Positions 10,722 through 14,474 of a stretch of 64,000 nucleotides of DNA are shown here, in pieces. How positions within the stretch are numbered: position 1 is the stretch's first letter; each line of letters starts with the position of its first letter. A program made the position numbers and the translations under genes. This DNA is from a virus. Its lineage: Duplodnaviria; Heunggongvirae; Uroviricota; Caudoviricetes. The DNA lies in the IMG/VR virus record IMGVR_UViG_2609460125_000009, one strand, 5' to 3'. Below the pieces are notes generated by a model. It did no database searches. It saw nothing but the letters and a program-made list of their open reading frames with translations, and was not told the origin of the DNA.

Positions 10722-10976
10722 ATGAGCTATGGTGCACAGGTATGGTCGCCATCAAGACAGGAGATGGTCGATGCGTTGGCCCCTGTTTATTACCTCGATT
10801 ATTTTACTCCCTCTGGTTCTGGAAGTAGAACATATGAGGTTGAGGCGGGATTGGGAATCGACTATTACATAATGGACGTAACCAATGGGAAATACACAAG
10901 TCTTACGGTTTCTGGAAATACCATTTCATGGTCTGGAGCTAGTGGCAATTTAAACATATTGGTTTTTCAAAAATAA
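10722..10976 (+). CDS. hypothetical protein (tail-fibre-associated position)
   Basis: 84-aa ORF directly downstream of the fibre gene; stop overlaps the next start. Confidence 0.4.
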   Translation: MSYGAQVWSPSRQEMVDALAPVYYLDYFTPSGSGSRTYEVEAGLGIDYYIMDVTNGKYTSLTVSGNTISWSGASGNLNILVFQK

Positions 10977-11584
10977 TGTACGGAAGCAAGATATATCGAT
11001 CTGACGGGAAGGTCTGGATGTCTCCTTCTTTGTCTCCTATCGTCTTTCAGAGAAAGCAGGTTGTTTCTTTGTCTGGCGGGACAGAGTTTAACACCCAAAT
11101 ATCTCCAGATCGTTCACCGATGATTTTTGTTGCCTATTCGAAAGCTGTTTCATTAATAGCCAACAGAATAGTGCGTAACAACCAGGTGATTTACAGTTTC
11201 GGAGGTCAGGGTAGCGACTCTAGTGCCACGATATACGTATTTTCGAAAGGTATAGCCAAAAAAGAAACTTGGGGCATGAGTTTTTTCAATGCACAAGGGG
11301 AGGAAATCTATAATACGGCAAATATCCCACTTTCATTTACCTTTCTTAATAATACGGAGTGGAACAGCTCTGGAGGGCATGTTTTTGATTACCCACCAGC
11401 GATAATCCCAACATATGCGAATGTGTTCGCTGTTCCAGTACCGGGCGGAGCCATGACAATGGTTTATGGATATGCGGCATATGGAAATACTGTTAGCTCG
11501 ATATTCGTAAACCAACTTAATGGCGGCCATAGTTTTAGCGTAAATGGCAGAGTACCGGTAATAAATAGAAATCTGTATAACTGA
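10976..11584 (+). CDS. hypothetical protein, possibly fibre-associated or receptor-binding accessory
   Basis: 202-aa ORF translationally coupled to the preceding ORF; no recognisable motif. Confidence 0.45.
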   Translation: MYGSKIYRSDGKVWMSPSLSPIVFQRKQVVSLSGGTEFNTQISPDRSPMIFVAYSKAVSLIANRIVRNNQVIYSFGGQGSDSSATIYVFSKGIAKKETWGMSFFNAQGEEIYNTANIPLSFTFLNNTEWNSSGGHVFDYPPAIIPTYANVFAVPVPGGAMTMVYGYAAYGNTVSSIFVNQLNGGHSFSVNGRVPVINRNLYN

Positions 11585-11591
11585 TGAGTAA

Positions 11592-11825
11592 ATGATGAAA
11601 AGATTATTTCTAACAATAGCTGTTGTTCTCTCTCTTACTGGCTGCCAGAAATTGCCGACACCTATATGTTACGGTGAGGCTATCATTGGTGGACAGGAGA
11701 CAGTCATACCCATATATGCTGTTAAAAAAGTGAACGACTATACCTTATACAAAGCGGGTAGCATCTATAACTGGCGATGGGTAGGAGTAGGTGCTTTCTC
11801 ATCAGTCCGTTGCAATGTTGAATGA
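11592..11825 (+). CDS. small lipoprotein (candidate Cor/Llp-like superinfection exclusion protein)
   Basis: Signal peptide with lipobox LTGC (MMKRLFLTIAVVLSLTGC); 77 aa; sits between fibre genes and the lysis cassette. Confidence 0.5.
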   Translation: MMKRLFLTIAVVLSLTGCQKLPTPICYGEAIIGGQETVIPIYAVKKVNDYTLYKAGSIYNWRWVGVGAFSSVRCNVE

Positions 11826-11906
11826 TAAGTAAGTACACACCTACAACAAGAAGGTGAAATGTGATATAAATCCGCCATCCCGATTTGACTTTTCATGGAG
11901 GAAAAC

Positions 11907-12230
11907 ATGTCGAACGAGATGGCGGGCGTTACAACAGAGCAAGTTGAGCGTATTGCCGCGATCGTTGCTCGGGAGGTTGTTGGCAAATTAGGTAAAGAGC
12001 TACGTGAAGAAATTGGCCAGGAGGTCAATGATCAGCTGAAAACCTACTTTGGTGATATGACCCCGGCGCAACATAGTATTCAACACTCCAACCTGGACAA
12101 ACTCCTTAACCGGTTAGATTCCATCTCCAGTGGGTTCTTTGGCGGCATTGTTTCTAAAATAACGTCGTTCATTATTACTGCACTGCTTTTGGGGTTAGCC
12201 GCGTATGGCGTAAAAAATGGACTGCAATAA
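11907..12230 (+). CDS. membrane protein with single C-terminal transmembrane helix (holin-like position)
   Basis: ATG at 11907 preceded by GGAGGA; one C-terminal hydrophobic helix (ITSFIITALLLGLAAYGV); directly upstream of the endolysin-like gene. Confidence 0.4.
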   Translation: MSNEMAGVTTEQVERIAAIVAREVVGKLGKELREEIGQEVNDQLKTYFGDMTPAQHSIQHSNLDKLLNRLDSISSGFFGGIVSKITSFIITALLLGLAAYGVKNGLQ

Positions 12231-12243
12231 CAGGAGATCAAGG

Positions 12244-12936
12244 ATGAAGACTCCGAGAGGCATTCGTAATAATAACCCCGGTAATCTTGATAAAGGATCA
12301 CCGTGGCAAGGTCTGGTTGCGAATCCAGACGAACCGCGCTTTTGCACGTTTAAAGACCCTGTTTGGGGGATTCGTGCGCTGGCGGTGACTCTAATTACCT
12401 ACCACGACAAACGTCGCGCAAAAGACGGCTCAAGTATCGATACCATTCGTGAAGTTATTGAACGTTGGGCACCGCCGAATGAAAACAACACTGACGCCTA
12501 CATTAATGAGGTGTCTAAAGCCGTTGGTGTAACCGCAGACATGATCATCGATCTGCATGATTACGACATCCTTCGACCTTTGGTTGAGGCAATCATTCGC
12601 CACGAGAATGGTCGAGGTCCACTAAAAACGCTGAACACCTGGTATGCGGCAGAAGTTATTGAAGAAGGTCTGCGTCGAGCTGGCGTCGTTAAGCCGGTGA
12701 AAACCGTGAAGGCTGTTCCTGTAACTAAAGAAACCGCAGGCGCAACTGTCACAGCAGGTATTGGTCTGGCGCAGCTTGCCGATGTTATGCCGCAGGTTTC
12801 CGCTGCTATGGATAAAGCACAAGGTCATATCTCTAGCGGGGATACAGTACGCATCATCTTCGGTATTGCCACTATTTTTGTGGCCGGATTCATTGCCTGG
12901 TCGCAGGTAAGAAGACACCAGAAAGGGATGGTCTAA
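12244..12936 (+). CDS. putative endolysin / cell-wall hydrolase with C-terminal membrane anchor
   Basis: RBS AGGAG before the ATG; N-terminal GIRNNNPGNL motif; C-terminal hydrophobic helix (IIFGIATIFVAGFIAW); located between the holin-like ORF and the spanin-like ORFs. Enzymatic class not resolved. Confidence 0.4.
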   Translation: MKTPRGIRNNNPGNLDKGSPWQGLVANPDEPRFCTFKDPVWGIRALAVTLITYHDKRRAKDGSSIDTIREVIERWAPPNENNTDAYINEVSKAVGVTADMIIDLHDYDILRPLVEAIIRHENGRGPLKTLNTWYAAEVIEEGLRRAGVVKPVKTVKAVPVTKETAGATVTAGIGLAQLADVMPQVSAAMDKAQGHISSGDTVRIIFGIATIFVAGFIAWSQVRRHQKGMV

Positions 12937-12937
12937 T

Positions 12938-13189
12938 ATGCTAGGCAGCCTGATGACAAAGCTAAAAGTTGCTTTGATTACGCTGGCTGCCGTTCTTTTC
13001 GTTCTTGTCGGCGCTTACACGATGGGCGGAAATGCGGCGCGACGAGCAATGGAAGAGAAGGCAAAACAGGAAGACAGAAAACGACTTCAAAACACAGTGA
13101 AAGTGGTGAATGAGACGAGCAGTAAAATACGTCAGAAAGATGCTTCTGCCGTTCATCGTGAGTTGTATGATAAGTGGGTGCGTCATTAA
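12938..13189 (+). CDS. Rz-like inner-membrane spanin component
   Basis: N-terminal transmembrane helix followed by a charged coiled-coil region; overlapped by an out-of-frame lipoprotein ORF. Confidence 0.5.
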   Translation: MLGSLMTKLKVALITLAAVLFVLVGAYTMGGNAARRAMEEKAKQEDRKRLQNTVKVVNETSSKIRQKDASAVHRELYDKWVRH

Positions 13190-13325
13190 ACCACAAACAG
13201 CCAGCGTGTTGTTCTGCGATGGGGCTGAGCCTATCTATATCAGCAATAATGATGTAATGACTGAAGAAACCGAACGCCAAATCCTTTTTCACAATACGAT
13301 GGGAGAGAGGGTTTGTGGTTGGTGA
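13110..13325 (+). CDS. Rz1-like outer-membrane lipoprotein spanin component
   Basis: Begins inside the Rz-like gene in another frame; lipobox ISGC; small, with Pro and Cys residues in the mature part. Confidence 0.45.
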   Translation: MRRAVKYVRKMLLPFIVSCMISGCVIKPQTASVLFCDGAEPIYISNNDVMTEETERQILFHNTMGERVCGW

Positions 13326-13335
13326 TGTCGAAGTT

Positions 13336-13357
13336 CCCCTCAAATGAGGGGAACACA
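13336..13357. terminator. hairpin between convergent genes
   Basis: Perfect palindrome GTTCCCCTC-AAAT-GAGGGGAAC between the + strand spanin stop and the - strand toxin stop; no clean T tract. Confidence 0.35.
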
Positions 13358-13879
13358 TTATTCTTCGAACAATTTTTCGATAGATTTTGTAGGATAGAAC
13401 AAAGAACGCTCGTTGTTACCAACCAGCTGGATAAAGCCTAAACTTTTATAAAACGCCTTGGCTTTGTCATTTAACGCCTCAACGAAAAGTCCATGAATGC
13501 CTACAGCAAGAGATGCATTGTACACAACGCGCATTGCATGTGTTACAAGCATTGAGCCAAATCCTTGACCTTGAAGGGACTTGTCCAAAGCCAGCCTACC
13601 CAAAGTAACACTTGGAACATTCCGATAAGGAACCTTCTTTTGTTTGCTTCTTGAAGGTAAGGACTCCTTTTCAAAACAACTACCTGACAAAGTGTAATAT
13701 CCTAACACTTTTGGCCTTTCTTCTTGAGTGCAAAGCACATAAGCACGAAGAATTTTTCCCTCATGCTGCCTTTTTAAGTGGTTGGCTAAAAAGGCGTTTA
13801 GTGACTCTTCGCCGCAATCAAAACCGTTTAGATCATAATCTTTCTCTCCAGAGAAAATCTCTATCGTTGTATTGCTCAC
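13358..13879 (-). CDS. GNAT-family acetyltransferase toxin (TacT/KacT-like)
   Basis: 173 aa with GNAT acetyl-CoA fold motifs (QGQGFG...); immediately downstream of a DUF1778-type small ORF on the same strand. Confidence 0.75.
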   Translation of the reverse strand: MSNTTIEIFSGEKDYDLNGFDCGEESLNAFLANHLKRQHEGKILRAYVLCTQEERPKVLGYYTLSGSCFEKESLPSRSKQKKVPYRNVPSVTLGRLALDKSLQGQGFGSMLVTHAMRVVYNASLAVGIHGLFVEALNDKAKAFYKSLGFIQLVGNNERSLFYPTKSIEKLFEE

Positions 13880-13886
13880 GAGTAAA

Positions 13887-14156
13887 CTACTCCATGCTTT
13901 TCAGACGATCAGCAGCTCGTTTCAGCTTGTCGTTCGGTGCCGGAGGATTGCTTATAGCGTCCATAACCAGATTCCAGGATTCTTCATTCAGAACTAGTCT
14001 ACGGTGTTGCTCTATAACTTTCACGGCACGTTCAGATGCACTGCTAACCATAAACTGAGTAATGCTCTGGTTAGACATTGCGGCAGCTTCCTCGATGATG
14101 CTTTTATCGTCATCGGTTAATCTCAAATCGATGCGCTGCTTTTTTAGTGCTGACAT
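13887..14156 (-). CDS. DUF1778-family antitoxin (TacA/KacA-like)
   Basis: ATG at 14156 with AGGAGG upstream; product MSALKKQRIDLRLTDDDKSIIEEAA... is the typical N-terminus of DUF1778 antitoxins; ends 8 bp before the toxin start. Confidence 0.75.
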   Translation of the reverse strand: MSALKKQRIDLRLTDDDKSIIEEAAAMSNQSITQFMVSSASERAVKVIEQHRRLVLNEESWNLVMDAISNPPAPNDKLKRAADRLKSME

Positions 14157-14474
14157 GTATTCCTCCTGATGGCCGTGATGTAGGAAGGCCATCAATCTCC
14201 TCTGTTCAAACTGAGTTTTCGACTCAAAAATTACTTTAAAAGGCTATAGCCCATTACGTGTGCATTATCAAATTGTGTACGGCATAACACCGTACTTGTA
14301 ATATAGAGGTCATTGTTACTTTTTTCAACAGACAAATACAAGCTATGATTGCCAATTGTTAATCACAACCTACCATTTAACCTTTACACCGCAGCCGTAG
14401 GCATTTAGGCTATATCACATATAAGAAAACAAGTTGTTTCAGACGATAATTATATACGCAAAGGGAACTCTCCA

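Follow-up and report, generated by a model that had tools for sequence, protein, structure and literature searches.

The 64,000-nucleotide (nt) window analysed here, a single strand of IMG/VR virus record IMGVR_UViG_2609460125_000009 (Caudoviricetes), contains at positions 11907-13325 four tightly packed genes, all in the same orientation, for a holin-position membrane protein (gene 1), an endolysin (gene 2) and an Rz/Rz1-like spanin pair (genes 3 and 4; Table 1). This region is 98.9% identical in nucleotide sequence to Escherichia phage Cyrano and 82% identical to Salmonella phage SSU5, and positions 1-25000 of the window match E. coli plasmids of ~110 kb at 98% identity; the window therefore represents an SSU5-like phage-plasmid. 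The Cyrano and SSU5 records label the same four genes holin, endolysin, Rz and Rz1. Cyrano, which is pLF82 of E. coli LF82, is inducible with release of virions (PMC9928086), and a near-identical cassette is therefore in working use. The arrangement is not a chance one, because all four proteins match phage families with E-values from 1e-24 to 1e-88 and the same gene order is seen in hundreds of plasmids and phages. The region is probably an intact lysis cassette closing the late (tail) operon, composed of an Enc34/M4Lys-type endolysin, Chi-type overlapped spanins and a first gene proposed to be XhlA-like. As a whole the system is of a known kind, with gene 1 as its one uncharacterised component; the endolysin class, the spanin architecture and the cassette annotation have all been published. 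New is the placement of the "holin" in a family so far unstudied and XhlA-like in architecture. The distant members of this family are always found with a separate holin, which points to a two-part membrane-lesion system, one part of which would, in SSU5-like and possibly also Chi-like phages, be fused to the endolysin.

An earlier note on this DNA, made by a model from the letters alone, had placed a lysis cassette at this position and described its first protein as having a long soluble N-terminus and a single C-terminal helix. Both descriptions are borne out: the four co-oriented genes have family matches and are followed by a terminal hairpin, and residues ~81-102 are the sole strongly hydrophobic stretch of gene 1, leaving a five-residue tail, KNGLQ. 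Ahead of this transmembrane (TM) helix lies an acidic helical N-domain with invariant G49, H56 and H60. The in-frame ATG at 11895 is an unlikely start because the GGAGG at 11897-11901 overlaps it. A lambda-like dual start at MEENMSNEM was rejected as well, the Shine-Dalgarno sequence overlapping the first ATG and lying too far from the third. The protein is 100% identical to the Cyrano "Holin" and 96% identical to the SSU5 "putative holin"; RefSeq plasmids label its homologue "hypothetical protein", and PHROGs labels the family, phrog_5093, "unknown function". No Pfam family is matched even at E<=10, the sole match being phrog_5093, and gene 1 thus belongs to no curated holin family of Pfam or PHROGs. 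It has the generic features of a holin, being a small one-TM protein of 107 residues encoded 13 nt before the endolysin gene, a gap in which terminator scanning and direct reading find no terminator. The charged hydrophilic C-terminal tail typical of holins is missing, with KNGLQ in its place and a mean phrog_5093 tail of ~9 residues carrying 1.2 K/R. Gene 1 was considered as a Chi-type holin (BSPM4 ORF37 or iEPS5 lysis protein B) and rejected, with a BLASTP E-value of 5.9 and the opposite architecture, the Chi-type TM helix lying near the N-terminus. Searches of the window (tblastn) with Chi-type, Holin_3_3 and other holin-like queries revealed no second holin. The phrog_5093 protein is the sole unexplored component of the cassette, from an unstudied family for which "holin" is a label by position; the evidence here neither proves nor excludes that label.

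A profile search of 1.8 billion representatives recovered 62 relatives of 94-143 residues. One architecture is common to 34 of them (alignment A3), down to 23% identity: a net-acidic helical N-domain of ~87 residues, a core motif, and an aromatic juxtamembrane segment before a single TM helix, which lies at the extreme C-terminus with ~9 residues after it. The core reads [YH]FG[DE]M..xxH...H.R[LI]..LL...D. H56 and H60 (HxxxH; window 12072-12086) and the glycine are the sole invariant residues of the family, situated in the soluble domain ~20 residues before the TM helix, and could form a metal, pH or protein-contact site. Its members in cultured phages are confined to 12 SSU5-like genomes (tblastn, with distant members included as queries), and in PLSDB it is found in 746 plasmids. 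An ISSG tetrapeptide is present in both gene 1 (12123-12134) and the endolysin (12829-12840), in each case 35 residues from the C-terminus and just before the TM helix. Homology between the juxtamembrane and TM segments of gene 1 and the endolysin C-terminus is not claimed: hhalign returns a probability of 19.7% and a score of 22.3, where the highest of 30 column shuffles reaches 18.1 and the reversed control 13.8, which is suggestive, not established.

In divergent SSU5-like elements the phrog_5093 gene always lies directly upstream of a TM-bearing endolysin, an adjacency kept in metagenomic contigs of 64% identity and in elements from Xenorhabdus, Providencia and Kluyvera, including those whose cassette has gained moron-like genes at other places. 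Scans of IMG/VR and GTDB for distant loci gave almost only SSU5-like elements, and a metagenome scan gave one short contig; in all, seven non-SSU5 loci were found, six of them informative. In L011, phrog_5093 is followed by a 3-TM protein of 101 residues (a weak match to the phrog_8226 holin), a phrog_669 endolysin, an i-spanin and an o-spanin. In three loci (L103, L106 and L107) it precedes a Peptidase_M15_3 endolysin and a small 1-2-TM protein, with an i-spanin-like protein next in L106 and L107. The following gene encodes a protein matching Pfam Holin_2-3 (35.6 bits, above threshold) and the phrog_1528 "holin" (1.7e-12) in L108, and a 2-TM protein of 102 residues in L102; in L105 a tail fibre gene and phrog_5093 run to the contig end. 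All six informative contexts thus contain a separate small, holin-like 2-3-TM gene, which belongs to a recognised holin family once (L108), and phrog_5093 is a family of lysis cassettes, found with three unrelated types of endolysin. Because a separate, classical-looking holin is always present outside the SSU5 group, phrog_5093 is probably not a stand-alone holin. The cassette in the window has no separate XhlB-like 2-TM gene, and the membrane module fused to its endolysin is the sole candidate partner. Two of the SSU5-like contigs carrying the cassette (L094 and L098, GTDB) are binned in metagenome-assembled genomes labelled Bacillota or "Candidatus Fimivivens"; the L098 cassette is of typical enterobacterial SSU5 type, so a mis-binned phage-plasmid contig is most likely.

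For the endolysin, a longer open reading frame from 12217 is probably unused, because AGGAG precedes 12244 and the Cyrano and SSU5 records annotate 693 nt. Residues 10-160 match the catalytic domain of the Hafnia phage Enc34 endolysin (PDB 7Q47; phmmer, E=1.5e-54). The AlphaFold2 (AF2) model, which has a predicted local distance difference test score (pLDDT) of ~90 across the catalytic domain, retrieves the same structure as its best Foldseek match (E=3.8e-16, TM-score 0.82, 59% identity). The protein additionally matches phrog_873 "endolysin" at E=4.5e-88 and aligns over its full length with endolysins of Chi-like phages at ~55% identity. Within its NNPGN motif N11, P12, G13 and N14 are invariant and N10 is >=90% conserved among 37 homologues (alignment A7), and the motif aligns with the same motif in Enc34 and E1004 Gp29. 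E121 is likewise invariant in this set, as are W75 and Y86, which correspond to Enc34 Trp79 and Tyr95; the three Enc34 residues, Glu131 included, are catalytically important (Cernooka et al., PMC8943055). By homology the NNPGN protein is an Enc34/M4Lys-type (PHA02564) endolysin, with muralytic activity predicted from its relatives. The earlier note had reported the motif, at residues 10-14, and a C-terminal TM helix, and both are there; its view that the protein could not be assigned to a hydrolase class did not survive the match to 7Q47, which places it in the Enc34/M4Lys PHA02564 class. Its suggestion of a non-canonical lysis system stands in so far as the cassette differs from the lambda paradigm, but two of the three oddities behind it, the class of TM-bearing endolysins and the overlapped spanins, are already in the literature.

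Much of what can be said about the enzyme comes from its relatives. The PHA02564 class is all-helical and remotely related to the lysozyme-fold enzymes of GH73 and GH23; Enc34 ORF39 and BSPM4 M4Lys are muralytic, with N-acetylglucosaminidase-type cleavage by M4Lys, and a C-terminal TM domain is a published hallmark of the class in Siskin, M4Lys and Enc34 (PMC8943055, PMC7143992). On over-expression, the full-length protein of this type is toxic or lytic in E. coli without a holin and in the presence of azide; deletion of the TM domain abolishes this effect, which depends neither on ORF37 nor on azide-sensitive Sec, and the TM domain alone is bacteriostatic (PMC8943055, PMC7143992). The M4Lys membrane module is necessary and, when over-expressed, sufficient for murein access, and the route by which the catalytic domain crosses the membrane is left open by the Enc34 and M4Lys papers (PMC8943055, PMC7143992). 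The window endolysin is homologous to the Enc34/M4Lys/Siskin type over the whole catalytic domain, and has the same catalytic Glu/Trp/Tyr and NNPGN signature, the same two-helix C-terminal module with a basic tail, and the same gene position between a holin-position gene and overlapped spanins. It differs in its setting, a temperate phage-plasmid of ~110 kb rather than a virulent flagellotropic siphovirus of ~60 kb, and in its upstream partner, an unrelated protein with a C-terminal TM helix (phrog_5093) in place of the ORF37 type with an N-terminal one. Judged by homology, the SSU5 lineage has its endolysin and o-spanin in common with Chi-like phages and a different first gene. In metagenomic contigs L009 and L010 (1107-3447), a TM-bearing Enc34-type endolysin of 59% identity lies in an unrelated prophage-like context beside a Phage_holin_3_3 protein and a LysC-like lipoprotein, which replace phrog_5093 or the Chi-type holin; the class is therefore paired with at least three different holin-position partners.

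The membrane module consists of two segments of unequal hydrophobicity. H1 is composed to 52% of Gly, Ala, Thr and Ser, with a conserved Q, D/E and P and a sequence kept across the family (Kyte-Doolittle ~1.05, summed Hessa scale 8-11, hydrophobic moment 0.27, mean hydrophobicity 0.38); H2 scores 2.0 on the Kyte-Doolittle scale and ~1.2 on the summed Hessa scale. The endolysin C-terminus should be cytoplasmic by the positive-inside rule, because the tail after H2 is rich in K/R (2.4 on family average) and the loop before it is net-acidic. Two topologies may be considered, either a hairpin that leaves the catalytic domain cytoplasmic or an N-out arrangement that has no signal. The protein starts with the hydrophilic sequence MKTPRGIRNNNPGN and has no signal or signal-anchor-release (SAR) sequence there; SAR endolysins have a weakly hydrophobic SAR domain at their N-terminal end, and the hydrophobic segments here are all C-terminal. 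The protein resembles the endolysins of pinholin/SAR systems (phage 21, P1 Lyz) in being membrane-tethered before lysis and in the Gly/Ala-rich, SAR-like composition of H1, but Sec-mediated signal-anchor export is inapplicable here because of the C-terminal placement of the hydrophobic segments. LysAP of Acidovorax phage AP1 similarly lacks an N-terminal signal and has a C-terminal TM helix with basic residues that is needed for localisation and lysis; it differs in having an unrelated GH24 catalytic fold, a Holin_2-3-type holin with a TM helix near the N-terminus, and export reported to be Sec-dependent.

The spanin genes had been described in the earlier note as a short Rz of 83 residues with an out-of-frame Rz1 extending beyond it, and this is what is found: Rz1 is read in the +1 frame, shares 80 nt with Rz and continues for 136 nt past the Rz stop. 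Beyond its TM segment the i-spanin is charged and helical (52 residues). The o-spanin has a basic n-region, a signal peptide and a lipobox, ISG|C24 (nt 13170-13181), that fits the consensus [LVI][ASTVI][GAS]C; the mature lipoprotein comprises 48 residues with two further cysteines, C36 and C69. The o-spanin of iEPS5, a Chi-like phage, matches it with 40% identity (E=1e-14). In the survey by Kongari et al. (2018), the SSU5 o-spanin was placed in the "Chi" o-spanin family and the SSU5 i-spanin in a singleton family beside overlapped-architecture entries (PMC6139136). Overlapped is the commonest of the three two-component architectures in that survey (228/528 systems), combined periplasmic lengths range from 62 to 300 residues, and the most frequent cysteine combination is zero in the i-spanin and two in the o-spanin (PMC6139136); the combined periplasmic length of the present pair is ~100 residues. 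The i-spanin TM segment, the lipobox, out-of-frame start and extension of the o-spanin, and at least one periplasmic cysteine, as expected of a two-component overlapped system, are all present. Spanin function of the class has been demonstrated experimentally in relatives. Rz/Rz1 is, by these predicted features, an ordinary overlapped two-component spanin pair of Chi type. It resembles the "Chi" spanins in its N-terminal-TM i-spanin, its +1-frame lipoprotein o-spanin that overlaps and outruns the i-spanin, its cysteine pattern and its o-spanin homology to iEPS5; unlike them, it has an i-spanin with no BLAST-detectable relation to the Chi-like i-spanin.

The closest architectural counterparts of gene 1 are two Bacillus phage proteins of ~90 residues with a single C-terminal TM helix, PBSX XhlA and SPP1 gp24.1. 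Their partners XhlB and gp26 are 2-TM holins; neither the XhlA/gp24.1-type protein nor the 2-TM holin does harm by itself, but the two together are lethal and lytic (PMC6316719). The gene orders are xhlA-xhlB-xlyA in PBSX and 24.1-25(endolysin)-26 in SPP1 (PMC6316719). Gene 1 resembles these proteins (PF10779) in size (~90-110 residues), in its helical or coiled soluble N-domain, in its extreme C-terminal TM helix with a very short tail, and in being the first gene of the cassette. Additionally, the gene orders of the distant phrog_5093 loci, partner-endolysin-2-TM holin and partner-holin-endolysin, equal those of SPP1 and PBSX. Differences lie in the hosts, which are Gram-negative here, and in the lack of a separate XhlB-like gene in the window.

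The preferred model, held tentatively as possible rather than probable, is that gene 1 co-assembles with the endolysin membrane module to make a timed lesion. The catalytic domain would be made without an export signal, and the enzyme would be anchored in the inner membrane through H1, H2 and the basic tail. Gene 1 would be a small tail-anchored membrane protein, its N-domain most likely cytoplasmic, acting like PBSX XhlA or SPP1 gp24.1 as the single-C-terminal-TM subunit of a two-part holin whose multi-helix partner would be the module fused to the endolysin instead of the product of a separate gene. Together the two would make a timed lesion in the inner membrane through which the tethered catalytic domain could reach the murein, and the spanins would fuse or disrupt the outer membrane once the murein had been degraded. 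A bolder version, which seems rather unlikely in its full form, extends this to Chi-type cassettes: in SSU5-type and Chi-type cassettes alike the holin would be split and one of its halves fused to the endolysin, H1-H2-basic tail being a class-II-holin-like hairpin (N-in, C-in), the folded catalytic domain being cytoplasmic, phrog_5093 being the XhlA-like single-TM partner and the enzyme reaching the murein at the rim of the lesion.

A number of observations speak against this co-assembly model. None of the 34 phrog_5093 members matches PF10779 at E<=10 (0/34), a family that SPP1 gp24.1 matches at 1.2e-14, and hhalign of alignment A3 with gp24.1 gives a probability of 0.9%, with no homology; because of this, the relation of phrog_5093 to XhlA is an analogy of architecture and gene order and not family membership. 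H1 is too weakly hydrophobic for a confident TM call, and the endolysin membrane module matches no stand-alone holin family. The flanking charges of gene 1 leave its topology unfixed by the positive-inside rule, and its AF2 model, built from a 10-sequence alignment, is all-helical with four helices, unreliable at a pLDDT of 47 and was rejected as unfit for a fold search. The distant contexts are a small sample, several of the seven on short contigs, and the search for another holin covered 64 kb of a ~110-kb element, ~46 kb lying outside. Finally, in the BSPM4 study the co-expressed unrelated holin ORF37 slightly delayed lysis by M4Lys (PMC7143992), so that the partner may as plausibly brake as cooperate.

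Such a brake is the substance of one competing account, in which gene 1 is an antiholin or lysis-timing regulator that would bind the lesion-forming endolysin module through its TM and juxtamembrane region and delay lysis until enough virions have been made. The toxic or lytic effect of M4Lys and Enc34 ORF39 on their own implies a need for restraint during infection. Also in favour are the slight delay caused by the BSPM4 holin-position protein, the existence of separate membrane-protein antiholins in the phage group (BSPM4 ORF52, for example), and the constant co-occurrence of phrog_5093 with another holin-like element. The weak juxtamembrane and TM similarity between gene 1 and the endolysin is a further point, its hhalign score of 22.3 exceeding all 30 column shuffles, but the associated probability is only 20%. 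A place at the head of the cassette, translated ahead of the endolysin, is more usual for holins, and the XhlA/gp24.1 precedent for the architecture is a co-operating component, not an inhibitor; the antiholin role is judged unlikely, if well short of far-fetched.

That head position, directly before the endolysin gene, and the holin annotation in SSU5 and Cyrano suit a different proposal, which is regarded as doubtful: gene 1 would make the timed lesion alone, as a self-sufficient holin from a single-TM class not yet described, which, compared with T4 T, is inverted in having a C-terminal TM helix, and the endolysin TM domain would be a tether released or activated on depolarisation, as for pinholins and SAR endolysins. 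Gene 1 is the sole small non-spanin membrane protein of the SSU5-type cassette, and the Enc34 authors speculate on a pinholin-like scheme (PMC8943055). It nevertheless matches no curated holin family and ends in a tail of only five residues, the presence of a separate holin-like gene in 6/6 informative non-SSU5 contexts argues that the family is normally not alone, and the related M4Lys-type endolysin lyses cells without any holin. A role outside lysis, as a membrane moron such as a superinfection-exclusion or tail-fibre-associated factor lodged between the tail-fibre module and the lysis genes, is very improbable. Moron-like membrane and lipoprotein genes (phrog_557, phrog_425, Cor) do lie directly upstream, a tail-fibre or DUF4376 gene comes directly before phrog_5093 in several contexts, and the PHROGs label is "unknown function". 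The morons are variable, however: Cyrano lacks them and the elements from Xenorhabdus and Providencia have them at another place, whereas gene 1 is fixed before the endolysin; its adjacency to endolysin or holin genes holds across three unrelated endolysin types, and the 13-nt gap to the endolysin gene has no terminator within it.

The choice among these roles matters beyond this element. SSU5-like phage-plasmids are very common in Enterobacterales and some carry resistance genes; given the 746 PLSDB plasmids with phrog_5093, this lysis machinery therefore operates in many clinical isolates. Endolysins of the Enc34/M4Lys class are under development as enzybiotics, and phrog_5093, should it serve as an XhlA-like subunit of a holin or restrain an endolysin that exports itself, would be the missing piece for murein access by the class. 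An XhlA-like role would extend the idea of two-component holins from Bacillus phages to Gram-negative phages. A split holin would be the first binary XhlA/XhlB-type holin recognised in Gram-negative phages, and would explain the Sec-free membrane crossing of C-terminally anchored endolysins. Were gene 1 merely another single-TM holin, the region would be an ordinary, already annotated lysis cassette.

Table 1. Features of the lysis cassette and its surroundings (window coordinates; aa, amino acids)
Feature	Position	Strand	Basis or remark
Tail fibre, 1385 aa	6504-10661		PF21446 T4 gp34-like trimerisation domain; C-terminal Peptidase_S74 intramolecular chaperone
Three small genes between tail fibre and lysis cassette	10722-11825		phrog_557, phrog_425, Cor-like
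Shine-Dalgarno GGAGG of first lysis gene	11897..11901	+	Direct reading; 5 nt before ATG at 11907
Gene 1, holin-position gene, 107-aa phrog_5093 protein	11907..12230	+	phrog_5093 E=8e-69
Gene 1 conserved core motif FGDMTPAQHSIQH, residues 48-60	12048..12086	+	Family alignment A3, 34 sequences
Gene 1 C-terminal TM helix, residues ~81-102	12147..12212	+	Hydrophobicity scan: Kyte-Doolittle ~2.0, summed Hessa scale ~1.3
Gene 2, Enc34/M4Lys-type endolysin, 230 aa: N-terminal PHA02564 glycosidase domain and C-terminal membrane module	12244..12936	+	phmmer, Foldseek, PHROGs
NNPGN motif, residues 10-14, N-terminal signature of PHA02564 domain	12271..12285	+	37-sequence alignment A7
Predicted catalytic glutamate E121 codon (= Enc34 Glu131)	12604..12606	+	Pairwise alignment to 7Q47
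Helix H1 of C-terminal module, residues ~164-189, weakly hydrophobic	12733..12810	+	Hydrophobicity scan, AF2 (low confidence)
Helix H2, residues ~201-222, strong TM helix, then basic tail RRHQKGMV	12844..12909	+	Hydrophobicity scan; AF2 helix 199-226
Gene 3, i-spanin (Rz-like), 83 aa, N-terminal TM residues 9-31, no cysteine	12938..13189	+	phrog_1026 "Rz-like spanin" E=7e-25; TM scan
Gene 4, o-spanin (Rz1-like), 71-aa precursor	13110..13325	+	phrog_1275 E=1.3e-24
Perfect 9-bp hairpin GTTCCCCTC-AAAT-GAGGGGAAC	13333..13354	.	Terminator scan and direct reading; between Rz1 end and convergent toxin gene
Type II toxin-antitoxin pair	13358-14195	-	Converges on lysis cassette, shares hairpin 13333-13354
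ParA/MipZ-type partition ATPase, 222 aa	14475-15143		Just downstream

The hairpin beyond Rz1 is the probable terminator of the late/lysis transcript. Of the two genes that converge on it, the toxin is a GNAT acetyltransferase of 173 residues (Acetyltransf_1/7; KacT in the Cyrano annotation) and the antitoxin is TacA-like (102 residues, PF08681, 8.6e-26); the pair is expressed as morons in LF82 while the phage is in the prophage state (PMC9928086). The ParA/MipZ-type ATPase further downstream is consistent with plasmid maintenance of the prophage. Upstream of the cassette, the three-gene block encodes a phrog_557 "outer membrane protein" of 84 residues, a phrog_425 "membrane associated protein" of 202 residues and a Cor-like superinfection-exclusion lipoprotein of 77 residues (phrog_1119, 3.8e-30). 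The block is present in SSU5 and absent from Cyrano, and looks like a mobile set of moron-type genes. Extra unclassified genes lie between the endolysin and Rz in L007 and L008, the Xenorhabdus and Providencia elements. The tail fibre, annotated in Cyrano as a homologue of P1 protein S, has a long, low-complexity N-terminal third rich in Ala, Ser and Thr, and the unit "GVNTTGNQNTTGNAATATKLQTAR.I.GV.FDG.A.I" is repeated in it several times.

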